DNA of 64,000 nucleotides from an uncultured Solirubrobacterales bacterium (GTDB taxonomy: Bacteria; Actinomycetota; Thermoleophilia; Solirubrobacterales; 70-9), in contig CAWCUT010000002.1 of assembly GCA_963798875.1 (NCBI GenBank), forward strand, positions 1 to 64,000, read 5' to 3'. The position numbers and the translations under genes were made by a program. Under the pieces are notes generated by a model that did no database searches, was not told the DNA's origin, and saw only the letters and a list, made by a program, of their open reading frames with translations. Below are positions 5,412 to 20,763 of this stretch, one piece after another. Each line of letters opens with the position of its first letter. Within the stretch, counting starts at the first letter, position 1.

Positions 5412-5972
5412 GTGCCCAAAGAGACCCTGAAGCGATGGCCCGTCAAGGCTTGGCTTCTGAGCGTCGCCGCAACCGTCGGTCTGGTTGCCCTCATCGCTCC
5501 CGCCGCAGCGTCGGCCGGCGGCGGCGGGGTCGGCGTCGGCTCGAGCCAGGACACCGTCCCCGGCAGCAAGGCGAAGCTCGTCCACGGACGTGCAGTCGCT
5601 CCCGCCAGCGCCCCCGACGAGGTCAAGGCCGTCATCGCCGCCGCCAACAAGATCCGCAACAAGCCCTACAAGTGGGGCGGCGGTCACGGCAAGTGGAAGG
5701 ACTCCGGCTACGACTGCTCCGGATCCGTCAGCTACGCGCTGCACGGCGGGCACCTGCTCAACAAGCCGCTCGACTCCGTCGGCTTCGAGCGCTACGGCGC
5801 GAAGAAGCACGGCAGCTGGATCACCGTGTACGGCTCCTCCAGCCACGCTTACATGGTCGTCGCCGGCCTGCGCTTCGATACGTCGATGACGCCGGGCAAC
5901 GGCCCCGGGTGGAGCAAGAAGATGCGCTCGACCCGCGAGAGCTACACCAAGCGCCACCCGCGCGGCTTCTAG
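5412..5972 (+). CDS. Secreted NlpC/P60-family peptidoglycan endopeptidase.
   Basis: GTG start after RBS AAGGAG. Signal peptide. NlpC/P60 active-site context KPYKWGGGHGKWKDSGYDCSGSVSYAL with downstream His (SHAYMV). Confidence 0.8.
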   Translation: MPKETLKRWPVKAWLLSVAATVGLVALIAPAAASAGGGGVGVGSSQDTVPGSKAKLVHGRAVAPASAPDEVKAVIAAANKIRNKPYKWGGGHGKWKDSGYDCSGSVSYALHGGHLLNKPLDSVGFERYGAKKHGSWITVYGSSSHAYMVVAGLRFDTSMTPGNGPGWSKKMRSTRESYTKRHPRGF

Positions 5973-6092
5973 CAAGCCGGCGGCGTCCGGGCACGCCTGA
6001 GGCCACCCACCGGCCGCCCACATGCCACCAGTATGCGGGCGGACCGGCGTGCGCCCTCAGCCGCCCCCGGACACTCGCCGCGTCTCCGACGC

Positions 6093-7115
6093 TCAGAGCA
6101 GCCGGAGCACGGCGCGCTCGATCCCCTCCCGGTCGGGGAAGGCGCCCGGATCAGCACCGCGCTCGATCCGCTCCAGGGCGCCGCGTACTGTCTCGCCCGA
6201 ATCGAAGCGGTCGAACACCCGCGGGTCGATGTAGGAAGCGCGGCAGACGGCCGGCGTGTTGTTGAGGTAGGCCGCCGTCTCGCGCACCGCCGCGTTCGCG
6301 ATCCGCTTGCGCTCGGCCTTCGTCGGGCGCCGCCTACCGCCGTCGGGCGCGTTGACAGCGAGCAGCACGGCGCAGAGCACGGTCGCGTTCCAGGTGCGGA
6401 AGTCCTTGGCGCTGAAGCCGGGGCCGGCGACTTCCTTGATGTACGCGTTGACGTGCTCGGAGGTGAGATCGCGCCACTCGCGGCCGCGGCGGAAGAGGAA
6501 GAGGTCCTGTCCCGGCTCGCCGCGCTTCTTCAGTGCCCTCAGCGTCGGCATCACCTGCGGCGCCGAGATCTGCTGATGGCCGCGCTTGCCGGACTTCGAC
6601 GGATAGTCGAAGACGGCGTCGCCGTCCTCGAAGGAGAGGTGCCGGCACTTGATCGTCGTCAGCCCGTAGCTCTCGTTCTCACTCTCGTAGCGCTCGCTGC
6701 CGACCCGGAAGAGGCCGAGGTCCAAGAGCGCGACGGCACACGCGCAGACCCGCTCGAAGACGAGGCCACGCTCGTCCAGCCCCGCCTCGATCCGCGCGCG
6801 CAGCTTCGGCAGGCGGCGCGCAAACTCCTCCATCTCCGCGAACTTGACCCGGTCGCGATGCTCGCGCCAGTCGTCGTGGTAGCGGTACTGCTTGCGCCCG
6901 GCGTCGTCGTAGCCGGTCGCCTGGATGTGACCACGCGGATCGGGACAGATCCACACGTCGGACCACGCCGGCGGGATCGCCAGGGCGCGAACCCGCTCGA
7001 GCGTCGCCTCGTCGGTGATCAGCTCGCCATCCTGCTCGTGGAAGCTGAAGCCGCCGCCACGCCGGGTCCGATGGATCCCCGGACCGGAGCAGTCGACTCG
7101 GCGCGTGCGAGGCAT
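6093..7115 (-). CDS. Bacterial type IB DNA topoisomerase (TopIB, poxvirus-like).
   Basis: 340 aa starting MPRTRRVDCSGPGIHRTRRGGGFSFHEQDGELI.... Conserved ALAIPPAWSDVWICPDP, GYDDAGRKQYRYH, FRVGSERYESENESYGLTT, SGKRGH, RTWNATV and the catalytic-Tyr context CRASYIDP. The 751-aa track ORF containing it is an over-extension. Confidence 0.8.
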   Translation of the reverse strand: MPRTRRVDCSGPGIHRTRRGGGFSFHEQDGELITDEATLERVRALAIPPAWSDVWICPDPRGHIQATGYDDAGRKQYRYHDDWREHRDRVKFAEMEEFARRLPKLRARIEAGLDERGLVFERVCACAVALLDLGLFRVGSERYESENESYGLTTIKCRHLSFEDGDAVFDYPSKSGKRGHQQISAPQVMPTLRALKKRGEPGQDLFLFRRGREWRDLTSEHVNAYIKEVAGPGFSAKDFRTWNATVLCAVLLAVNAPDGGRRRPTKAERKRIANAAVRETAAYLNNTPAVCRASYIDPRVFDRFDSGETVRGALERIERGADPGAFPDREGIERAVLRLL

Positions 7116-11143: not shown

Positions 11144-13242
11144 TCAGCCGCCGGGCGCAGCCGCCTCGAAGGCGGCCGCGACGCCCTCGAGCAGGCGTCT
11201 CGGGCGTGAACGGCTTCTCGACGAAGCCCGCCTCGAGCTCACGGACGCCATCGCGCGAGATCGTGTCGCCCGTGTAGCCGGACATGAAGACGATGCCGAT
11301 CCCCGGATCGCAGCTCGCGCACGTCGGCGGGCGAGCTCGACTCCGGAGAGGCCCGGCATGACGATGTCGGTGAGCAGCACCGCGAAGCGCGATCTCCGCA
11401 GCGACGAGCAACTCGAGCGCCGCTCGGGCGCGGCCGCGACCTCGACGTCGTAGCCGCCCTCGACGAGCACCCGCTCGGTCAGCCGACGAACCATCGCGTC
11501 GTCCTCGACGAGCAGCACCCGGCGCGGCTGCTGCGTCGCCCTCGGCGGCGGGCGTCGCCGGCACCGCTGCATCGAGGCCGGCTGCAGCGACCTCGCTCGG
11601 CGACGGGCAGCAGGATGTCGACGTCCGTCCCGCCGCCCGGCTCGGAGGCGAGCTCGATCGAGCCGCCGAGGCCGGAGACGATCCCGTAGACGGTCGCCAG
11701 GCCGAGCCCGGAGCCCTCGCCGATCGGCTTCGTCGTGAAGAACGGCTCGAACGCCTTCTCCTGCACGGCTCGCGGCTCATGCCGACGCCGTCGTCGCTGA
11801 CCGTGAGCCGCACCCAGCGATAGCTCGGCGTCGCTGCGACCGGCGCGCTCGACGCTGATCCGGACCGTGCCGCCGTCCGGCATCGCGTCGCGGGCGTTGA
11901 CCGCGAGGTTGACGACGATCTGCTCGATCTGGCCGCGCGCCGGCCTCGATCGCGCGCAGGTCGCTCGCCAGTCGAGGTCTCGATCGAATAGCCCTCGCCG
12001 AGCGTGCGGCGCCAGCATGCGTTCGGCGCGCGGCGACCGCCTCGGCGACGTCGATCGGCTCGATCGCGACCACCTCCTGCCGCGAGAAGACGAGCAGCTG
12101 CCGGGTGAGCTCGGCGGCGCGGCGTCGCCGCCGCCTCGATCTCGTCGATCGACTCGCCTCGGACCGGCCCCGCCTGCGACGTGCTCGCGAGCGAAGGTCG
12201 CGTGGTTGAGGATGACGCCGAGCAGGTTGTTGAAGTCGTGGGCGATCCCACCGGTGAGCTGGCCCATCGCCTCGATCCGGCTGAGGCGCTGGAAGCGCGT
12301 CTCGAGGTCGCGCGCCCGCTCGCGCTCGTGCGCCGCCGCGAGCACGTGGCGAGGTCGCCTGCAGAAAGCCGACCTCGGCGACCGAGAAGTGCCGCTCGCC
12401 CCGGTGCGAAGGCGGCGAGCAGCGCCAGTCGGCCGGAAGGGGTCGCCGATCGCGACGCTGATCCCGTCCCGTGCGCCGCAGCGCGCGAAGAGCCCCTCGG
12501 GCGTCCAGCTCGGAGGGGTGTCCGTGATGACGACGCCGGTCCCGGTGCGCAGCAGCGCCGCTGCGTCGGTGCCCGCCAGCGGGATCCGCTCCGTCGGCCG
12601 CTCCTCCCCGCCCCAACCGCGACCGCCCTCGAAGCGCAGCACGCCGTTCTCGGCGTCGATGGCGAAGACGGCGACGAGCTCGATCGCCAACGATTCGGCG
12701 ACGATCTTCGCGGCCCGCGCGACGAGCTCGGTGCGCTCGATCCCGCCGATCGCCAGCGTGCCCAGCGCGGCCACGGGGCCGAGGCTGCTGGTCGCCGGCA
12801 GGTGCTCTCCGGGGGCACGGGCTGCCGAGGTGTCGAGGACGAGCGAACAGGTGCCCGCGATCGAGCCGTCGGGGCGGAAGTCGAGGCCCGAGCGAACCCG
12901 CGCCGGGAAGGTCGCGCCGTCCTTGCGCAGCAGCCGCAGGTCGTACTCGAGCGGCGTCTCGGGGATCCGCAACAGGGCCTCCCGGAGCCGTTGGGTGACG
13001 TCCGCCGTCGCGATCGGCAACTCCTCGGGCAGCCGCCCGATCGCCTGGGCCGCGGAGTAGCCAAACATCTCCTCAGCCGCCCCGCCCCATCCACTGATCA
13101 CCCGCGGCTCGCCGCTGAAGCGAATCAGCGCCACGCCAAGCGCCCGCAGCTGCGCCAGCACCACGGCCTCGCCCGCCGCGAAGGCAGCGTCGGGTCCCGC
13201 GCCAACCTGTCCCGACCCCCCGGGGTCCGCCCCATTGCTCAC
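11144..13242 (-). pseudogene. Hybrid sensor histidine kinase (PAS-HisKA-HATPase-REC) with multiple frameshifts.
   Basis: N-terminal PAS (LIRFSGEPRVISGWGGAAEEMFGYSAAQAIGRLPEEL). HisKA (GQLTGGIAHDFNNLL). HATPase (VNLAVNARDAMPDGGTVRI...GSGLGLATVYGIVSGLGGSIEL). C-terminal receiver (VLLVEDDAMVRRL...LLTDIVMPGLSG). Spread over at least 4 frames. Confidence 0.65.
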
Positions 13243-13454
13243 CTGTCGAGTCTCTACGACGTGTGCCCGCTGCGCAACCCCCCCGCTTAGGTGTACGGCG
13301 ATGGCCACCCGGACGCCATCGCCGCCATCGCCCGACCTGACGATGAGTCTTCCGGACTTCACCCCCTCCACGGTGGCAAAGCCCGGAGTGCTTCCGCCGG
13401 CCGTCGCCCGATTGGGCTGAAGTCGCGGGGATGACTCACTAGTAGCCTCGTCGC

Positions 13455-14294
13455 GTGCGGATCGGGATCGCAACCTGCGTGCACCCGCCGGCGCGGGACG
13501 AGGACATCGACTTCCTGCTGCCGGCGCTGCGCCGCCGGGGCGCCGAGGCCGAGGCGAAGCCCTGGAGCGATCCCGCGGTCGACTGGGCCGGCTACGACGT
13601 TGTCCTGATCAGCTCGACCTGGGACTACGACGAGCAGCTCGACGAGTTCCTCGCCTGGAGCAAGCGGGTCGGCGCGGCGACCGCGCTGCGCAACCCGGCC
13701 GCGACGGTCGCCTGGAACGTCGACAAGCGCTACCTGCGTGAGCTCGAGGCGGCCGGCGTCGCGACGATCCCGACGATCTGGACGGAGCCCGGTCAGGAGG
13801 AGGAGATCGAGCGCACCGTCGCCGAGCTTGGCTGGGGCGACGTGATCATCAAGCCCGTCGTCGACCTCGGCGCCCGGCGCCTGGCACGGGTCGAGACGCC
13901 GATGGTCGCCCGCATCCTCGAGGCGCTTGCGGCGCCGGGCATGGCGCAGCCCTTCCTGCGCCCCCTGCAGACCGAGGGTGAGCTCAGCCTCGTGTTCATC
14001 GGCGGCGAGCTGACCCACGCCGTCCGCAAGCGGCCCGCCCGCGGTGACTTCCGCGTCCAGCCGCAGTACGGGGGAACGGTCGAGCCGCTCGAGCCGCCGC
14101 CGGACGCGGTCGCGCTCGCCCGCGAGGCACTCGCCGCGGCACCGGGGGAGCCACTGTACGCACGCGCCGACTTGATCCGCGACGGCGACGGGAAGCTGCG
14201 CCTGATCGAGCTCGAGCTCATCGAGCCGGTCCTCTACTTGGGCTTCGCGCCGGCTGCCGCCGAGCGCCTCGCCCGGGCCCTGCTCGCAACCTGA
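13455..14294 (+). CDS. ATP-grasp domain protein (RimK/glutathione-synthetase-like). This is copy A of the duplicated unit.
   Basis: 279-aa intact ORF from a GTG start. ATP-grasp-like layout. Homologous to the truncated copy at 18590. Confidence 0.7.
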   Translation: MRIGIATCVHPPARDEDIDFLLPALRRRGAEAEAKPWSDPAVDWAGYDVVLISSTWDYDEQLDEFLAWSKRVGAATALRNPAATVAWNVDKRYLRELEAAGVATIPTIWTEPGQEEEIERTVAELGWGDVIIKPVVDLGARRLARVETPMVARILEALAAPGMAQPFLRPLQTEGELSLVFIGGELTHAVRKRPARGDFRVQPQYGGTVEPLEPPPDAVALAREALAAAPGEPLYARADLIRDGDGKLRLIELELIEPVLYLGFAPAAAERLARALLAT

Positions 14295-14773
14295 GCCCCA
14301 GGGCTCTCGTACAGATGTCGAGACGGCTTGCGGACGCTGATCGCGTGGCGCGGCGGCGCCGATGGTGAGGTCGCTGGGGGTCGTATCTGGGGACGCATCC
14401 CCGAGGAGACCTCATCAAGACGCATTCAGACATCGCAGGATCAGGGAGGGCGTGGATCGACGTCGCCGGCCGGTCTCGGGCGGGCAAACGCGCGGGCCTG
14501 GGCGGGCTGCCGGTCCGCGGACGTCCACTGCAGGGGAACGGGGCCGCCCGCCGCTGCGCACCGTTCCTCGCCGCGGCTGTCGCGGCGCTGGCGCTGACGG
14601 CAGCGAACGCCCCCGCCGACTCTGCCGACGAGCTCCTGGCCGCGACGATCGCCCTGCTCGGCGGCGCGCTGCTGGCCCGCTCACTGCCATGGCGGCGCCT
14701 GTCCGCGTCGGCGCAAGCGCTGCCGCCGCTCGCCTTCCTGGCAATCGTCGCGCTCGTCCGCGACGCGGAGGGA

Positions 14774-15511
14774 GTGGCCGTCGCAACGTTCACGCCGATG
14801 CTGGCGCTGCCCGTGATCTGGTTCGCCCTGTACGGCACGCGGACCGAGCTGGCCGTCTCGATCGGCCTCGCCGGCGCCGTCATCGCCGCGCCCGACCTGA
14901 TCGATCCGGACGGCGCGTCGCTGGAGCCGGCCGCCGCGGGCGTCTGGATCGTCGTCCTCGCGCTCGTCGGCTACGCGAGCTCGGCGATCGTCCGGGAGCG
15001 GGAACGCCTCCTCGACGAGGTCGGAAAGCTCGCCCGCACCGACCCGCTCACCGGGCTCGCCAACCGCCGCGGCTGGGGCGAGATGCTGCGCCGCGAGATC
15101 GCGCGCGCGGACCGCGACGAGGGACCGCTGTCGGTCGCGCTCGTCGACATCGACCGCTTCAAGGAGTTCAACGACCGCTACGGCCACGCCGCGGGCGACC
15201 GCCTGCTCAAGGAAGCCGCCTCGCGCTGGAGCTCGCAGATCCGCGAGATGGACCTGATCGCCAGGCACGGTGGAGAGGAGTTCGCGGTGCTGCTGCCGGG
15301 CGCCCGGGCAGCGGACGCGGCGTCCGTCGTCGAGCGCGTACGCAGCAGCGCTCCTGGAGGGATCACGATCTCGGGAGGCGTCGCGCAGCGTCAGCAGGGC
15401 GAAACCCCGGAGGCGCTCCTCGCCCGCGCCGACGCCGCCATGTACCAGGCCAAGCGCGAGGGCCGCGACGCGATCCGCGTCGCTCAGCGCTCGGCGACCA
15501 GCAACGTCTGA
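14774..15511 (+). CDS. GGDEF diguanylate cyclase with an N-terminal membrane domain (copy A). The membrane domain continues in-frame upstream to about 14400 with no canonical start.
   Basis: GGDEF core: RTDPLTGLANRRGWGE...VALVDIDRFKEFNDRYGHAAGDRLL...RHGGEEFAVLLPG. The upstream in-frame sequence encodes TM helices but lacks ATG, GTG or TTG back to a stop at 14366. The start is unresolved. Confidence 0.7.
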   Translation: MAVATFTPMLALPVIWFALYGTRTELAVSIGLAGAVIAAPDLIDPDGASLEPAAAGVWIVVLALVGYASSAIVRERERLLDEVGKLARTDPLTGLANRRGWGEMLRREIARADRDEGPLSVALVDIDRFKEFNDRYGHAAGDRLLKEAASRWSSQIREMDLIARHGGEEFAVLLPGARAADAASVVERVRSSAPGGITISGGVAQRQQGETPEALLARADAAMYQAKREGRDAIRVAQRSATSNV

Positions 15512-16316
15512 CAGGCGCGGCCGAGGGGGCCGCGCTCGTCGAGCAGCAGCGTGTCCGCCATGCCCTGCCCGTTCGGCTCGGGGATCGTGAGCGCGTCGAG
15601 GCAGACCCACTCCCCCGCCGGTAGCCGGTGCAGGTGGACGGTCAGGTCGACGTTGATGAACAGGTAGCGCTGAAAGTCGAGCGTCGAGCTGATTCCGTTG
15701 CCGGAGTCGGCGGCGACCATCACGCGCTGCAGCGACGTGGGCTCCTCCCCGGCGACGAGCGGGTGGCGCGAGCGCATCCAGCAGACGGCGGCGCCGGTCT
15801 CGAGGAAGCCGCCGCGCACGAACCGGTACTCCATCGCCGAGTGGTAGCCGACGGCCTCACCCGTCGGAAAGAAGACCTCGCTGGCCTCGAGCTCGCCGGG
15901 GGGCGGCGGCGGGCCCTGCTCGCCGCTCGGCCGCCCGGCGCGGGCGGGAGCCGAGCCCGGCCCACCGGCGCTCGCCAGCCCGTCGGGGTGCCGTCCTTGC
16001 GGACAAGGCGCACGTCGTGCTCGACCGGCGTCTCCGGCATCCGCAGCAGCGACTTCCGCACGCGCCGCGCCAGCAACGGGCTCGCGATCGGCAGCTCCTC
16101 CGGCCGGCAGCCGATCGCCTCCTCCGCGGTGAAGCCGAAGATCTCGGTCGCGGCCCCCTCCCAGGAGGTGATCCGGCGCTCGTCGCCGCTGAAGCGGATG
16201 AGGGCCGCGCCGAGCTGCAACAGGCGGGCGGTCACGGCGGCCTCTTCGGCCGCAGGCGCAGCCCCCGACTCCCCATCTGGCCTCCCCCAGCCAGCGGAAT
16301 CGCCGCCTGTGCTCAC
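15484..16316 (-). pseudogene. Chimeric remnant: a duplicated PAS-encoding 5' fragment of the sensor-kinase gene joined to the C-terminal half of a thioesterase-family gene (copy A).
   Basis: 15990-16316 encodes ALIRFSGDERRITSWEGAATEIFGFTAEEAIGCRPEELPIA..., about 75% nt identity to 12905-13242. 15484-15834 encodes MEYRFVRGGFLETGAAVCWMRSRHPLVAGEEP...HLHRLPAGEWVCLDA..., near-identical to 20037-20400. Confidence 0.5.
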
Positions 16317-16335
16317 AGGGAATTTGTACCGCTTC

Positions 16336-16770
16336 CTACGATTCCTGCCATGTGGCGCCGGCGCCTGATCGCGATTGCCGCCTGGGCGCCGGCGGTTGCG
16401 TGCCTCGGATTCGCCCTCCTGCGGGTGAGCGGAGCCGGGGGCGATCGCGGAGCTCGCGAGCTCCGACCCGGTCGCGTCGCGACGCCCGCGCTAACTCCGG
16501 CTCACCGGTTCTCGCGCCGCCAGAGAGGCGCAGGCCGGACCAGGTTACGTCGATCGCGCAGACCTTGTTGTCAACCAGGCCAAGTGGGAGCGCGAGCTCG
16601 CGGGGCACGTCCTCGGTGATGTCCGTGGCGACCCCGGAGGCCCGCTTCGGCCAGGCGACCCAGAGCCCGCCCGCGGGGTGGATCGCACCGCCGACCGGCT
16701 TGCGGCGGCGGCGTAGCTCGGCACGGCGCCGCCCGAACAGCGCGCCAACGTCCAGCGGGCCGCGTGCCAC
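16336..16770 (-). CDS. Hypothetical protein (possible gene remnant).
   Basis: GTG-initiated 144-aa ORF (WVARGPLDVGALFGRRRAEL...GGLWVAWPKRASGVATDITEDVP...). No confident family assignment. C-terminal third is low-complexity. Confidence 0.3.
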   Translation of the reverse strand: MARGPLDVGALFGRRRAELRRRRKPVGGAIHPAGGLWVAWPKRASGVATDITEDVPRELALPLGLVDNKVCAIDVTWSGLRLSGGARTGEPELARASRRDRVGARELRDRPRLRSPAGGRIRGTQPPAPRRQSRSGAGATWQES

Positions 16771-17049
16771 CCACTTCGTCGTGACGCCGTCGGGAAGCGG
16801 ACCGAGGCTCGCCGCGAAGCCGACCGGAGCGCCGGGCGTCGCCAGCGTCGAGCCGGACCAGATCCCGGCGTGCGGGGAGCGGAGTTAAGGGTGGCCGGCC
16901 GCGCCCACGTCGACGCGGTCGTCTCCATAAGAGTACGGCCGCCGCATGGCCTCACCAAGAAGAACGTATCGTGTTTCCCCATTGGCGAGATAACCAAATG
17001 AACTGCTATGTGACTTGACAAGCGGCCTCGGCTCGCCTACAAAACTCAT

Positions 17050-17580
17050 ATGGGCCCCGCTGGGAGAGGCCATGGTCGGAAGGGATACGCGGTCGTCGCG
17101 ACATCCTGGTTAGTTTGCGTGCTGCTGGTTGCTACCGATGCAGTGGGTCATACCCCCACTTCCCACGGCACAGCTTGGCAGGGGAAGGGAGGGTTCACAA
17201 CGTTGATTCCGCGATGCGTCAAGACTCTCTCCAGACTTGCTCATGGCACCCAGAATAAGGGCTTTGTTCGCACCACCACCGAGAGTTGGAAGAGCGCATT
17301 CAACGGCACTTGCAACTATACGAAGAACAAGGACAAGAACAAGATCGCTGCCAAATGGGATGTCTACCGGCGGTCAAAAGACGGCACATACAAGTACTGC
17401 GCGGGCTCCGCGTGGTATTACAATCCTAGTAGCACTTGGTCATATTCGGTGTACTACAACTTCCCAACCGTTCCGTGCAAGTGGGGTGCCTACCGGGCTA
17501 GGTCCTCCAGCTTCGTGAAACAGCACGGCAATTGGAAGGGTGGGTCGACGTGGTCCCCCCCACATTCATTCCCACCGTAG
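17050..17580 (+). CDS. Small secreted Cys/Trp/Tyr/Lys-rich protein encoded in a lower-GC island.
   Basis: N-terminal hydrophobic signal (AVVATSWLVCVLLVATDAVG). Mature region about 140 aa with 4 Cys, 7 Trp, many Tyr/Lys/Asn (…NGTCNYTKNKDKNK…YSVYYNFPTVPCKWGAY…). A/T-ending codons (aag, aac, tac) contrast sharply with the flanking genes. Confidence 0.55.
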   Translation: MGPAGRGHGRKGYAVVATSWLVCVLLVATDAVGHTPTSHGTAWQGKGGFTTLIPRCVKTLSRLAHGTQNKGFVRTTTESWKSAFNGTCNYTKNKDKNKIAAKWDVYRRSKDGTYKYCAGSAWYYNPSSTWSYSVYYNFPTVPCKWGAYRARSSSFVKQHGNWKGGSTWSPPHSFPP

Positions 17581-17586
17581 GCTGCG

Positions 17587-18018
17587 ATGATGCGTCTTCG
17601 ACCAATCCTCATTTCTATAGCGGCCATACTTCCGGTAGGGCTGGTAGTGCTGAGCGTAAGCCCGGCGTCCGACAGTCCGCGTGCCACGCATCCCGATACT
17701 GAGCTGACCGCAGCCTACGAGCCAGCGCTCCCGAAGGACGGCGACTTCGTACCAGTTGTGGGTCCGGACGGCAACGATGTTCGTTGTCCGAACGGCAAGC
17801 TCCTGAAGGTCGAGGTTGGGGGCCCGCCACCCGAAGTGTTCGTCGATCCCCCTCCCACCCAGCCAAGTGCTGCGCAACCGCCGGATGAGCCGCCTGCCGC
17901 TGGAGCCATCCTCGTACCAGCTGAACCGTTAGTTCCGATTTGCGGTGGGAAGGGAGGCACGGCGAACCCGCGATGGATTCCTCTCTCCCATCGTCACGCC
18001 GGAACGCAAGGTTCGTAG
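17587..18018 (+). CDS. Small secreted proline-rich protein (lower-GC island).
   Basis: Signal peptide MMRLRPILISIAAILPVGLVVLSVSPA. Pro-rich mature region (GGPPPEVFVDPPPTQPSAAQPPDEPPAAG) with 2 Cys. Confidence 0.45.
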   Translation: MMRLRPILISIAAILPVGLVVLSVSPASDSPRATHPDTELTAAYEPALPKDGDFVPVVGPDGNDVRCPNGKLLKVEVGGPPPEVFVDPPPTQPSAAQPPDEPPAAGAILVPAEPLVPICGGKGGTANPRWIPLSHRHAGTQGS

Positions 18019-18407
18019 CCGTCGCACTGGCTGCGGCCATGCTGGCAACTGGACTCAGTTCCCCGGGTTGTGGTGGCGGCACGGAACCAACAGCCGGCCC
18101 CGGCCCCGGCAGTGGCTCCCCCGTCAGTCTCGAGCGCGCAACGGAAATCGTCGAGAGGCGAGGCACCGAGATCCAGATGGCATATGACGGCGCCAGGACT
18201 GTGTCCCCGGCGCCTGCCAGCGGGGCGGGACCAAGAGATGCGGACGCGACTGAGGGGTTGTTCGTGATCAGGGTCTTGCTTGCGAGCGGCTCGAGGCAGC
18301 CGGCGAGGGAGCAGTCAGTCGACGGTGTGCCAATTGAGTTCCACGTACTTTCGCCGGGCGTGAGCGAATCGGCCCCTCCGCTGAATAGTGAGGGCGGTAA
18401 CCCGTAG
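17973..18407 (+). CDS. Small secreted protein or possible lipoprotein (lower-GC island).
   Basis: MDSSLPSSRRNARFVAVALAAAMLATGLSSPGCGG signal with a Cys shortly after the h-region. The ORF track start (17940) overlaps the preceding gene, so the internal ATG at 17973 is preferred. Confidence 0.4.
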   Translation: MDSSLPSSRRNARFVAVALAAAMLATGLSSPGCGGGTEPTAGPGPGSGSPVSLERATEIVERRGTEIQMAYDGARTVSPAPASGAGPRDADATEGLFVIRVLLASGSRQPAREQSVDGVPIEFHVLSPGVSESAPPLNSEGGNP

Positions 18408-18500
18408 CCATCAGGCGCCGAGTTGGCGCTGGCCGCCGAGTAGCTCGTTGACCCGGGTCAGGCCCGAGAGGCCCGGCGCTACGGCGCTGCCCGCGATAGC

Positions 18501-18526
18501 GTCCACGCCACACGTGTGGCGCGGAC
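18501..18526. repeat. 26-bp near-perfect palindrome carrying the recurring ACGTGTGGCGCG motif.
   Basis: gtccacgccacac|gtgtggcgcggac (one mismatch), immediately upstream of duplicated copy B. Confidence 0.5.
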
Positions 18527-18589
18527 GTGGCTTCAGATCTGACCGAGCCCACGGACGCGTCCACCCGTCGACCACTAGTCTCCCGCCGC

Positions 18590-19000
18590 GTGCGGATCGG
18601 GATCGCGACCTGCTCCCGCCCGCCGGCGCGGGACGAGGACATCGACTTCCTGCTGCCGGCGTTGCGGCGGCGGGGCGCCGAGGCCGAGGCCGCAGCCTGG
18701 ACCGACGCGAAGACCGATGGTCCGCCTTCGACACCGTCCTGATCAGCTCGACTTGGGACTACGACGAGCGCCTCGACGAGTTCCGTGCCTGGACCGACCG
18801 CACGGGCGGCGAAACGAAGCTGCTGAACCCTCCGGCGACCGTGGCCTGGAACCTCGACAAGCGCTACCTGCGCGAGCTCGAGGCAGCCGGCGTGGCGACG
18901 ATCCCTGCCGATGGTGCTCCGCTGGGGGTCGTATCCGGGGGATCGAACCCGGAGGGAGACCTCATCAACACCGACACAGACATGGCAAGCGCAGGGAGGC
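18590..19000 (+). pseudogene. Truncated, frameshifted ATP-grasp gene (copy B of the duplicated unit).
   Basis: Starts VRIGIATCSRPPARDEDIDFLLPALRRRGAEAEA... (about 85-90% nt identity to 13455 onward). Contains a frameshift. An internal deletion of about 0.5 kb removes the C-terminal half relative to copy A. Confidence 0.55.
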
Positions 19001-20030
19001 CGCCGATCGGCGGTCACGAGATCGACTACAGCCGCGGCAGGCGCGCTCCGGCCGCGATCCCAGAGCGAGGCCGGCCGCTCGAGGGGCGCGGCGCCTGGCG
19101 CCGCTGCGCGCCCTTCCTCGGGGCGCGGTGGCGGCGCTGTTGCTGAGCGCGTTCGTTGGGCCCGCGGCGCTGAGCGGCGCACAGCTCGTGCGGGCGCTGG
19201 CGGCGGTCGTCGGCGGCACCGTTGTCTCCCTGCTCGTCCCCTGGCAGCGACTGCCGGCGGCGGCGCAGGCGCTGCCGCCACTGCTCTTCCTCGTCTTCGT
19301 GGCGCTCGTCCGCAACGCGGAGGGAACCCCGGTGACGACGTTCACGCCGATGCTGGCGCTGCCGGTGATCTGGTTCGCCCTGTACGGGACCCAGCTCGAG
19401 CTCGGGGCCGGGATCGCCGCAGCGGGACTCGTGATCGCGCTGCCGCCGGTGCTGGATCCGGACGGCACGCTGAGCCGGGAGCTGCCCGCGGCCGGCATCT
19501 GGCTCGTCGTGCTGCTCCTCGCCGGCTACGCGACCTCGGCGCTCGTCCGCGAGCGCGAGCGGCTGCTGGGAGAGGTCGCGAAGCTGGCCCGCACCGACCC
19601 GCTCACGGGCCTCGCCAACCGCCGCGGCTGGGGCGAGCTGCTGCGGCGCGAGATCGCACGGGGCGAGCGCAGCGGCGCCCCGCTCTCGGTGGCGCTCGTC
19701 GACATCGACCGGTTCAAGGACTTCAACGACCGCTACAGGCACGGCGGGGGACCGGCTGCTGAAGGAGGCGGCCTCGCGCTGGAGCGCCCACGTCCGCGAC
19801 GATCGATGTGATCGCGCGGCACGGGGGTGAGGAGTTCGCGGTGCTGCTGCCAGGCGCGGGAGGCAGCGACGCGGTGGCCGTCGTCGAACGCATGCGGGCT
19901 GTCGCCCCCCGGGCATCACCTTCTCCGCCGGCATCGCAGAGTGGCGGCCGGGCGAGAGCCCTGACGCGCTGCTCGGGCGCGCGGACGCGGCCATGTATAG
20001 GGCCAAGCGCGAGGGCCGCGACGCTGTCCG
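18983..20030 (+). pseudogene. GGDEF diguanylate cyclase, copy B, with at least 3 frameshifts.
   Basis: ATG at 18983 (where copy A has ATC). TM region, then RTDPLTGLANRRGWGELLRRE...VALVDIDRFKDFNDRY, then a frameshift, then IARHGGEEFAVLLPG, then a frameshift, then GITFSAGIAEW...AMYRAKREGRD. About 70-85% aa identity to copy A. Confidence 0.6.
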
Positions 20031-20036
20031 GCTCGC

Positions 20037-20763
20037 TCAGCGCTCCGCGACGAGCAGCGTCTGACAGGCGCGGCCGAGCGGGCCGCGCTCGTCGAGCAGC
20101 AGCGTGTCCGCCATGCCCTGCCCGTTCGGCTCGGGGATCGTGAGCGCGTCGAGGCAGACCCACTCCCCCGCCGGCAGCCGGTGCAGGTGGACGGTCAGAT
20201 CGACGTTGATGAACAGGTAGCGCTGGAAGTCGAGCGTCGAGCTGATTCCGTTGCCGGAGTCGGCGGCGACCATCACGCGCTGCAGCGGCGTCGGGCTCCT
20301 CCCCGGCGACGAGCGGGTGGCGCATGCGCATCCAGCAGACGGCGGCGCCGGTCTCGAGGAAGCCGCCGCGCACGAACCGGTACTCCATCGCCGAGTGGTA
20401 GCCGACGTCCTCGCCGGTCGGAAAGAAGACCTCGCTGGCCTCGAGCTCGCCGGGGGCGGCGGCGGGCCCTGCTCGCCGCTCGGCCGCCCGGCGCGGGCGG
20501 GCGCCGAGCCCGGCCCATCGGCGCTCGCCAGCCCGTCGGGGATCGCCGGCGCCGATGCGGCCAGGCGCCAGGCCCGGGCCCGGATCAGCTCGCCGCCGCT
20601 CGCCGCTCGCCTCGCTCAGCGTCGCCTCGAGCAGCTCGACGCGGCGGCCGGCGCGAACCGTCGCCACGTCGACCCGCAGCTCGGCGATCGGCACCGGGCG
20701 CAGGATCTCGAACGTGATCCGGCCGACCGAGCGATCGCCGGGGCCGGCGCCGATCCCCGGCAT
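20037..20763 (-). pseudogene. Thioesterase-family (TesB/4HBT-like) protein, copy B. Full length but frameshifted.
   Basis: N-terminal GRITFEILRPVPIAELRVDVATVRAGRRVELLEA. C-terminal EYRFVRGGFLETGAAVCWMRMRHP...DFQRYLFINVDLTVHLHRLPAGEWVCLDA.... Pieces lie in at least 2 frames. Confidence 0.55.

Follow-up and report, generated by a model that had tools for sequence, protein, structure and literature searches.

A low-GC islet in a Solirubrobacterales contig encodes a secreted protein pair with a possible N-terminal-histidine metal site

We analyzed a low-GC islet in a 64,000-nucleotide (nt) stretch of DNA from an uncultured Solirubrobacterales bacterium (positions 1 to 64,000 of contig CAWCUT010000002.1, assembly GCA_963798875.1); the whole 64-kb stretch is referred to below as the window. 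The islet lies in a 2.1-kb insert and carries three small open reading frames (ORFs) on the plus strand, of which ORF1 and ORF2 encode the proteins designated here A and B. The family relationships described below make it highly probable that ORF1-ORF2 is a real secreted A-B module. The interpretation that we favor is that the islet is a horizontally acquired cell-envelope module in which A may use its N-terminal histidine to bind a metal, probably copper, and we give this reading a probability of roughly 0.4. In kind the islet is ordinary, a small piece of horizontally acquired cargo; its content is an undescribed family of protein pairs, having a fold without a match and a plausible N-terminal-His site.

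Composition and coding content of the islet

The mean GC content across the window is 70.4%. In 300-nt windows it falls to a minimum of 0.527 at 17200-17499, with flanks of 0.70-0.78: it is 0.77 at 16600-16899 and recovers to 0.74 by 18400-18699. When the window is divided into 128 bins of 500 nt, the lowest value (0.554) belongs to 17001-17500 and the runner-up (0.628) is the adjoining bin. As a reference for codon use, we took 32 long ORFs from the window with a high GC content at third codon positions (GC3), in which GC3 is 0.913 ± 0.030 and the codon adaptation index (CAI) is 0.721 ± 0.060. Compared with these, ORF1, ORF2 and ORF3 have GC3 values of 0.68, 0.60 and 0.69, and CAI values of 0.35, 0.30 and 0.36 (0.357), respectively, the CAI values corresponding to z of -6 to -7; overall, GC3 and CAI of the three ORFs lie 6-10 standard deviations under the reference genes. 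An initial reading of this DNA without database searches (the sequence-only reading) had claimed that base composition and codon choice in the islet depart from the GC-rich background, and this holds upon recomputation of windowed GC, GC3 and CAI. Deviant composition and codon use are among the features by which genomic islands are defined, and the islet displays them.

The three consecutive small ORFs described in the same reading are all present, at 17050-17580, 17587-18018 and 17940/17973-18407. Each also has the signal-like hydrophobic N terminus ascribed to it, in the form of basic residues followed by a single 15-aa stretch with a Kyte-Doolittle hydropathy of 2.3-2.9, nothing comparable being found downstream. 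Two minus-strand ORFs (17566-17877 and 17615-18166) were considered and set aside. Both overlap with ORF2, a gene conserved on the plus strand, and neither has relatives in the loci of the homologues described below or in 80 related loci, which were gathered via the flanking ATP-grasp protein and derive mostly from Solirubrobacterales (class Thermoleophilia, Actinomycetota) metagenome-assembled genomes (MAGs).

ORF1 belongs to a family of small secreted proteins

Protein A, the product of ORF1 (17050..17580, plus strand), is 176 aa long. Residues 1-33 form a predicted signal peptide that would be cleaved after A31-V-G33, leaving a mature chain of 143 aa that starts at His34. The mature region contains four cysteines (Cys56, 88, 117 and 143), in agreement with the earlier description of about 140 aa with 4 Cys, as well as His34, His65, Asn125, Tyr148, Trp162 and His172. 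The full ORF has 9 codons for Trp, 11 for Tyr, 15 for Lys and 8 for Asn.

In a word-indexed search of a collection of 5.8 billion proteins, ORF1 retrieved only P0001, its own deposited gene. A HMMER search of 1.84 billion cluster representatives returned 68 matches to ORF1, nine of them below 1e-10, and 64 of the 68 were confirmed by a family hidden Markov model (HMM) built from alignment A3. The other four (P0015, P0037, P0048 and P0057) are Trp-rich repeat proteins that do not match the family HMM, and they were discarded as compositional false positives. ORF1 itself matches the A-family HMM with an E-value of 9e-51 and possesses the signal peptide, the four Cys, the HG motif, N125, Y148, W162 and the C-terminal S-x-x-H. 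Family members are 150-190 aa long and are annotated as "hypothetical" throughout. The family is found in MAGs of Solirubrobacterales and other Actinomycetota, in Thermoflexus hugenholtzii (Chloroflexota) and in a single Rhodothermales MAG, and the only plasmid records in which it occurs are giant linear plasmids of four Streptomyces strains.

No member of the A family has a match in Pfam (E up to 10), NCBIfam, PHROGs or PADLOC, and a profile search of PDB sequences also gave none. Pattern scans of metagenome and viral contigs using ORF1 and alignment A4 found nothing, and phage records contained no match. The statement that no family could be recognized for the islet proteins is correct for curated families; however, ORF1 can be placed in a family, itself unnamed, of about 64 clusters, and ORF2 belongs to its partner family.

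Among the 64 members, the residues around the predicted cleavage site are well conserved: Ala occupies position -3 (A31) in 81%, Ala or Gly occupies position -1 in 98% (63/64), and residue +1 (H34) is His in 56/64 (88%), being Asp, Tyr or Phe otherwise. In most stand-alone members, 22-45 residues precede the conserved His. Further into the protein, the four Cys are conserved at 97-100%, N125 at 95% and Y148 in 64/64, and Trp162 is likewise conserved. H/D65, which is followed by Gly66, is conserved at 89%. The Ser169-x-x-His172 motif is also conserved, and its H172 (97%) lies five residues from the C terminus. ORF1 deviates from the majority residue at few positions, e.g. Gly144 is replaced by Lys. 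The signal-like N termini and Cys residues conserved in both the A and the B families argue for the secretion of the ORF1 and ORF2 products that had been proposed earlier.

The deposited model of ORF1 (P0001) is a 125-aa protein starting at TTG 17203, so that neither the signal peptide nor His34 nor the first strand is included. Since the family alignment spans ORF1 residues 10-51 and includes the conserved signal and His, the genuine start codon is the ATG at 17050, and the deposited model falls 51 residues short. A candidate promoter, noted by eye only, is found at 17015..17043 on the plus strand; it consists of TTGACA and TACAAA separated by 17 nt, and it ends 6 nt ahead of the ORF1 ATG. 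This pair of hexamers is a possible promoter for a leaderless ORF1 mRNA. A consensus promoter scan missed it, position 6 of the second hexamer being A.

The purine-rich sequence GGGAAGGGAGG occurs twice, at 17183-17194 within ORF1 and at 17947-17957 within ORF2. The first copy lies 8-9 nt 5′ of the deposited TTG and the second 16 nt 5′ of the ORF3 ATG; the two may be Shine-Dalgarno-like or may be there by chance.

ORF2 encodes a linked partner of protein A

Protein B, the 143-aa product of ORF2 (17587..18018, plus strand), has a predicted signal peptide. It is Pro-rich and contains two Cys, as had been remarked from the sequence, and both of these (Cys 67 and 119) are conserved in the partner family. 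A word-indexed search of the 5.8-billion-protein collection found no match to ORF2. ORF2-like genes do, however, adjoin A homologues in L088/89, L090/91, L092, L095 and L098/99 (31-44% identity, BLAST E-values of 1e-6 to 1e-10), and ORF2 is also similar to the segment that precedes the A domain in the proteins P0004 and P0014. The motifs of the B family are GPDG..V.C..G..L.V.V and P..P.CG...W, which include the two Cys, and all 13 invariant columns of a six-sequence B alignment (A5) are kept in ORF2. A second partner subtype, with the motif W.N/R.DG.VD.S..P...G.DG, follows A in a Streptomyces plasmid (L081) and in L082, L085 and L093.

The A and B genes lie side by side in the window and also in L081, L082, L085, L088/89, L090/91, L092, L093, L095 and L098/99. 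There are about 12 distinct contexts in all: a BLAST-supported B stands beside A in ten of them (the window included), one has an A-B fusion (L096/L097, P0022) and one a B-A fusion (L087, P0004). In L083, the gene after A encodes a secreted Pro-rich protein that lacks BLAST support as B. The fusions occur in either order, namely: A-then-B in P0022, P0050 and P0056; and B-then-A at the C terminus of secreted proteins of 970-1120 aa in P0004, P0014 and P0086. These family comparisons indicate that ORF2 is a real gene and the linked partner of ORF1.

Predicted fold of protein A

Modelling of ORF1 by AF2 using the 64 family sequences yielded an all-beta structure with a predicted local distance difference test (pLDDT) score of 89.4, a predicted template modelling (pTM) score of 0.77 and 123 residues above a pLDDT of 90; the single sequence gave a pLDDT of 38. 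Foldseek searches of PDB and BFVD returned nothing below an E-value of 1e-3, and query TM-scores were <0.4 among the matches listed. The predicted fold of A is a beta-sandwich that has no close relative among the structures in PDB and BFVD, and no lytic polysaccharide monooxygenase (LPMO) is found among the top structural neighbours of the model.

We consider it highly improbable that A is an MspA-like channel-forming protein. The resemblance is to the rim sandwich of MspA and not to its membrane-spanning stem, sequence identity is 5-6% (5% with the rim domain in PDB 2v9u and 1uun), Pfam gives no MspA match and Foldseek finds nothing. A has neither a stem hairpin nor, outside the signal peptide, any hydrophobic stretch (the maximal 15-aa hydropathy is 0.53). 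In addition, the hosts of the family include Solirubrobacterales, Streptomyces and Chloroflexota, which are not known to have a mycolic-acid outer membrane. The likeness between A and MspA is probably one of sandwich topology only.

A candidate N-terminal-His metal site

A conserved His at position +1 of a secreted protein has no part in signal peptide cleavage and is a hallmark of histidine-brace and N-terminal-His metal sites. In the A family, His is the first residue after the predicted cleavage (AxA|H, 56/64 members), and candidate second ligands are available in H172, H/D65 and Y148, conserved at 97%, 89% and 100%, respectively. In the three proteins in which the A domain is internal and has no free N-terminal His (P0004, P0014 and P0086), H65 is changed to Y/F and H172 to E, and the Cys, N125 and W162 are kept. 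The fusion of a membrane protein to A in P0026 keeps ASA|H, H65 and H172. Metal binding is the reading that we favor because of the conserved His at +1, the conserved His/Asp/Tyr set and the loss of His65 and His172 where A is internal. An N-terminal-His metal site in A has, in our estimate, somewhat less than an even chance of being real, and the conserved N-terminal His suggests such a site more than it does the bacteriocin or effector of the sequence-only reading.

The combination of a signal peptide and a conserved N-terminal His predicts metal binding whatever the fold (PMC12537917). In a 2025 study, this signature led to new metalloproteins, including the His1 beta-sandwich domains Ang-1 and Ang-2, which bind Cu(II) with a Kd of ~60-75 nM; Ang domains are coupled to membrane permeases, and Ang-2 is restricted to Actinomycetota (PMC12537917).

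In the mechanism that we propose, A would be exported via Sec and cut after AxA, such that His34 becomes residue 1, and would fold as a beta-sandwich with two disulfides. B would be a secreted Pro-rich partner with one disulfide, and it probably binds A because the two are fused in either order in other genomes. The pair would be joined by a third, lineage-specific envelope protein, here ORF3 and elsewhere a multi-pass membrane protein or a lipoprotein. A would bind a transition metal, most likely Cu(II), in a histidine-brace-type site to which His1 would contribute its free amino group and imidazole, and His172 and His/Asp65 further ligands, Tyr148 being close by. Acting with B and the membrane partner, A would capture, buffer or hand over the metal at the cell surface; analogues of this role are CopC/CopD, YcnI/YcnJ and the Ang 'anglerase' domains. 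With less assurance, we suggest that ORF1 and ORF2, plus the membrane partner found elsewhere, may represent an undescribed family of N-terminal-His metalloproteins with a dedicated secreted partner, spread by mobile elements in Actinomycetota and Chloroflexota. Such proteins might serve in copper capture or buffering or, more boldly, A might be a histidine-brace redox enzyme acting on envelope polymers.

Several observations weigh against metal binding by A. The proposed site, comprising His34, His65, Tyr148 and His172, is predicted from residue conservation. Pfam and NCBIfam give no sequence match between A and any metal-binding family, LPMO_10, CopC, DUF1775, DUF4198 and DUF6702 included, A is related in neither sequence nor fold to LPMO, CopC, YcnI or Ang, and none of the 12 contexts contains a gene for CopD, a multicopper oxidase, CsoR or a P-type ATPase. 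His34 is replaced in 12% of the members while His172 is kept, i.e. the N-terminal His is not strictly required, and the correlated loss of the His residues represents two independent lineages only. Furthermore, toxins too are frequent in mobile elements and defence islands, the kinds of DNA that make up the contexts. Finally, the islet in the window has no multi-pass membrane partner and the other genes of the surrounding block are decaying, so the islet may be non-functional here.

Alternatively, A could be a non-catalytic, metal-free binding module (a lectin, carbohydrate-binding module (CBM) or adhesin) that contacts a cell-wall or environmental polymer through an aromatic binding face. This would be in keeping with the beta-sandwich and the conserved aromatic/Asn set (W114, W122, Y124, N125, Y148 and W162), with the use of the A domain as the C-terminal module of large surface proteins, and with the neighbours of A in L098, among which are genes for a GH31 protein, a GH5 cellulase and a glycosyltransferase. 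It nevertheless leaves unexplained why the cleavage-exposed position is His in 88% of the members and why the loss of His65 and His172 coincides exactly with an internal position of the domain. There is also no match to a CBM family in Pfam, and we regard a purely binding role as distinctly unlikely.

Comparison with known metal-binding systems

Of the known systems, Ang-1/Ang-2, DUF4198 and DUF6702 share with A a Sec signal peptide, a His as residue 1 and a small Ig-like beta-sandwich (PMC12537917). Ang and A also have in common a link to membrane proteins, which in the case of A takes the form of the fusion P0026 and of the operon in L098, where the genes for a membrane protein (C), A and B follow each other; the restriction of Ang-2 to Actinomycetota is a further likeness. 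On the other hand, Ang sits N-terminal to a HupE/UreJ permease, of which there is none here, and A differs from Ang by its two predicted disulfides and its obligate secreted partner B, its metal binding being itself a prediction.

CopC/PcoC-CopD and YcnI-YcnJ resemble the A systems in that a small secreted beta-sandwich has an N-terminal His and a second His near the C terminus, a membrane partner is encoded alongside, and carriage on mobile DNA is frequent. Features not shared with CopC and YcnI are the four Cys of A, its invariant Tyr and the partner B; A also matches neither the CopC nor the DUF1775 profile and is not accompanied by a CopD-like gene in the contexts examined. The LPMOs of family AA10 are secreted beta-sandwich proteins of Actinomycetota in which a signal peptide is followed by His1, and they have a second His and a conserved Tyr, as does A. 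In contrast to them, A is smaller (143 aa), has no LPMO_10 match and shows no linkage to CBMs, and glycoside hydrolases are found near it in L098 only.

If the metal-site reading is true, the short list of histidine-brace or N-terminal-His metalloproteins formed by LPMO, CopC, YcnI and Ang would gain another fold family, one that has an obligate partner, and such modules would be seen to travel on mobile DNA in soil Actinomycetota. Function aside, three apparent orphan ORFs have become a defined unit, namely an A-B pair with Rosetta-stone fusions, a confident model and residues to mutate. The deposited annotation is also corrected with respect to the start of ORF1 and the presence of ORF2. The A-B module is an uncharacterized accessory, modest in size and rare, and not a demonstrated mechanism.

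Genomic contexts and horizontal origin of the A-B loci

Homologues of A are found in mobile and variable DNA, many of the loci being conjugative elements, defence islands, stretches flanked by IS elements or linear plasmids of Streptomyces. L083 and L088 are elements with a serine recombinase, SLT and SSB, and L085 has an rve integrase; L090 and L092 are defence neighbourhoods with McrBC, methyltransferase, OLD and Bil-type genes; and L081 is a giant linear plasmid in which A lies near a Fic protein. In nearly every locus, the GC content of the A gene is below that of its surroundings (e.g. 0.61 vs. 0.72 in L088 and 0.59 vs. 0.71 in L085), so that low GC characterizes the family and is not specific to the window. 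The A-B loci are accessory mobile cargo, in agreement with horizontal acquisition in the window. Such an acquisition had been proposed in the sequence-only reading, and it is borne out by the atypical codons, by the absence of the islet from three relatives and from all 80 loci, and by the occurrence of the homologues in mobile or variable DNA. We thus hold it very likely that the islet is foreign, horizontally acquired cargo of the 2.1-kb insert.

Two of these loci have additional features. In L092, the A genes are in tandem (5620-5982 and 6001-6564), the first of them being uncalled in the source record. In L093 (3305-10200), an A-B-lipoprotein operon has, in divergent orientation to it, genes for an extracytoplasmic function (ECF) sigma factor and for an anti-sigma factor of the zinc-finger type, and the genes that come next encode an FtsX-like permease of 658 aa and an ABC ATPase; this neighbourhood is a possible regulatory and export/immunity context for the A family.

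A third gene follows A and B in many but not all loci, and its sequence is not conserved between them. It encodes a multi-pass membrane protein in L081, L082, L092 and L098, and in L087, where it comes after the fusion protein. In L098, the membrane gene C is located upstream and overlaps A by 4 nt, which gives the order C-A-B, and in P0026 the membrane protein C is fused N-terminal to A. Elsewhere the third gene encodes a 132-aa lipoprotein (L093) or a TM-PASTA protein (L088).

In the window, the third position is taken by ORF3 (17973..18407, plus strand), which is 144 aa long from its ATG, or 155 aa from TTG 17940. Its product has a basic and hydrophobic N terminus, the sequence SSPGC and a Gly/Pro-rich linker. 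The lipoprotein-like signal that had been attributed to it is weakly supported, SSPGC departing from the canonical lipobox. Within 18100-18350, the ORF3 frame is the one with the highest GC3, and its codon use is atypical like that of the rest of the islet. No relatives of ORF3 were found in Pfam, NCBIfam, the 80 loci or the homologue loci; the latter include the third genes elsewhere, with which ORF3 was compared as a possible homologue and to which it shows no similarity. We consider it somewhat more likely than not that ORF3 is a real gene, the start codon of which is uncertain.

The contexts and the third gene also bear on the idea of a secreted antibacterial role for A (as class III bacteriocin, bacteriolysin or stand-alone C-terminal domain of a polymorphic toxin), directed at the envelope of competitors, with B as a helper or pre-toxin and the third gene providing immunity. 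The third gene indeed varies in sequence and yet nearly always encodes a membrane protein or lipoprotein; in secreted proteins of 970-1120 aa that carry Ig-like repeats, B-A occupies the extreme C terminus, and a multi-pass membrane protein is encoded next; and the family has a patchy phyletic pattern, its contexts being mobile elements, defence islands and plasmids. The FtsX-like permease/ABC ATPase and the ECF sigma/anti-sigma pair adjacent in L093 would suit such a system, and the conserved His/His/Tyr could equally serve a lytic enzyme as its catalytic metal site. On the other hand, searches of Pfam, NCBIfam, PHROGs and PADLOC reveal no similarity to known bacteriocin, toxin or immunity families, the large fusion proteins lack the conserved His that would form the active site, the third gene is missing in several loci (L083, L090), and the predicted fold, a plain beta-sandwich, has no enzyme-like neighbour. 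We therefore judge an antibacterial function to be rather unlikely, and retain an envelope module with metal binding by A as the preferred reading.

The insert and the duplicated block that contains it

The closest relatives among the 80 loci are L001 and L003, with ~91% nucleotide identity to the window, and L001-L003 are all collinear with it. In L001 and L003, a block consisting of histidine kinase (minus strand), ATP-grasp (plus), GGDEF (plus) and thioesterase (minus) genes is present as a single copy; the window has two. Copy 1 (13438..15990) comprises, on the plus strand, the ATP-grasp and GGDEF genes and, on the minus strand, the thioesterase gene, of which it includes the C-terminal part (Pfam GSH-S_ATP, GGDEF and 4HBT_3C). 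Its reading frames are intact and it is 89-97% identical to L001 and 65-89% identical to L002; it is the native copy.

The second copy resembles L002. It starts with 15984..16443, which contains an N-terminal PAS fragment of the histidine kinase (minus strand, weak PAS_4 match) and about 30 first codons of a small membrane/EEP-like gene (plus strand), and which is 88.9% identical to L002 9111-9570 and only 72.6% identical to L001. The small membrane/EEP-like gene is severed at 16443, where the alignment breaks, and is complete in L002. The duplicated PAS fragment, the native copy of which lies near 12910-13370, joins the truncated thioesterase directly at ~15988. The block resumes at 18556..20541 with ATP-grasp′, GGDEF′ and thioesterase′ genes, which are L002-like and decayed, with broken frames. 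Identity between 13438-15990 and 18556-20541 ranges from 64 to 96% depending on the segment. Over its whole length (15984-20541), copy 2 is 87-97% identical to L002 until ~20000 and 93-96% identical to copy 1 thereafter; this switch looks like a recombination joint. In alignments, copy 2 looks like the homologous block of a related species that was integrated in tandem: it tracks L002 and then copy 1, and is therefore xenologous and not a fresh duplication. A recent duplication in situ was ruled out, the copies being 64-96% identical and copy 2 following the L002 lineage.

The 2.1-kb insert (16444..18555) is delimited by the alignment and replaces L002 9571-9973, i.e. ~400 nt of the membrane/EEP-like gene. 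Searches by blastn and tblastn found no counterpart of 16444-18555 in the 80 related loci, and L001, L002 and L003 lack it at the syntenic site, as is expected of a genomic island. The insert has two parts: a GC-rich, host-like DUF3052-like remnant on the minus strand and then the low-GC cassette of three ORFs on the plus strand. The proposal that the island is wedged between duplicated blocks was right as to the duplication, which is real; the low-GC DNA, however, sits within the upstream part of copy 2, where it is preceded by the duplicated histidine-kinase fragment (15984-16443) and then by the DUF3052-like remnant (16512-16884).

In principle, the islet could be inert here, either as a relic in a decaying duplicated block or as an assembly artefact that mixes two co-occurring strains. 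Frameshifts abound in copy 2: in comparison with L002, 761 nt are deleted at 18906 and there are at least seven indels of 1-2 nt (18718, 19122, 19744, 19798, 19906, 20293 and 20450). An exact look-up of the deposited ORF1 product yielded no indexed contig, the neighbouring DUF3052-like ORF has no start codon, the window lacks the membrane partner seen in L098, the relatives share the sample-name prefix MFD, and copy 2 resembles another lineage, L002. The broken genes of copy 2 may be pseudogenes or may reflect polishing or strain mixing in the metagenome assembly. ORF1 and ORF2 are nevertheless intact and keep the invariant or nearly invariant residues of their families. The indels are concentrated in copy 2, with none in copy 1 or in long genes elsewhere in the window, which argues against general sequencing error, and the junctions of the insert are sharp and lie inside one contig (reported as 707 kb). 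An inert or artefactual islet appears improbable.

The islet lacks the mobility hallmarks of an island in the window, i.e. an integrase or transposase, a tRNA target or flanking repeats. The insert is too small to hold a recombinase gene, and there is no recombinase within or adjoining it. A tRNA scan found no tRNA within the window, no Rfam RNA families are present in or beside the islet, and no direct or inverted repeats that bound it were found. The recurring palindromes that had been invoked as its bounds are not seen: the palindrome downstream of ORF3 is unique in the window and relaxed matches to it are at chance, so palindromes and repeats were rejected as boundaries.

The DUF3052-like remnant (16512..16884, minus strand) has host-like codons (GC3 0.895, CAI 0.65) and no start codon, a TAA (16885-16887) standing immediately upstream. 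The minus-strand frame at 16336-16884 is one that we take to be DUF3052-like; Pfam gave no match and did not confirm this, and the annotation of a tblastn match (E-value 7e-14) as a DUF3052 domain protein agrees with it.

The palindrome itself (18501..18528) is a near-perfect 28-nt sequence, CGTCCACGCCACAC/GTGTGGCGCGGACG, located 94 nt past the ORF3 stop codon and occurring once in the window. The core CCACACGTGTGG is matched exactly once and, when ≤2 mismatches are allowed, 5 times, vs. 2.3 expected, and 8 of 100 shuffles reach that number. The palindrome could be a terminator hairpin or an operator; the hairpin is present in the centroid fold, and the folding energy of the region is ordinary (z of -0.6).

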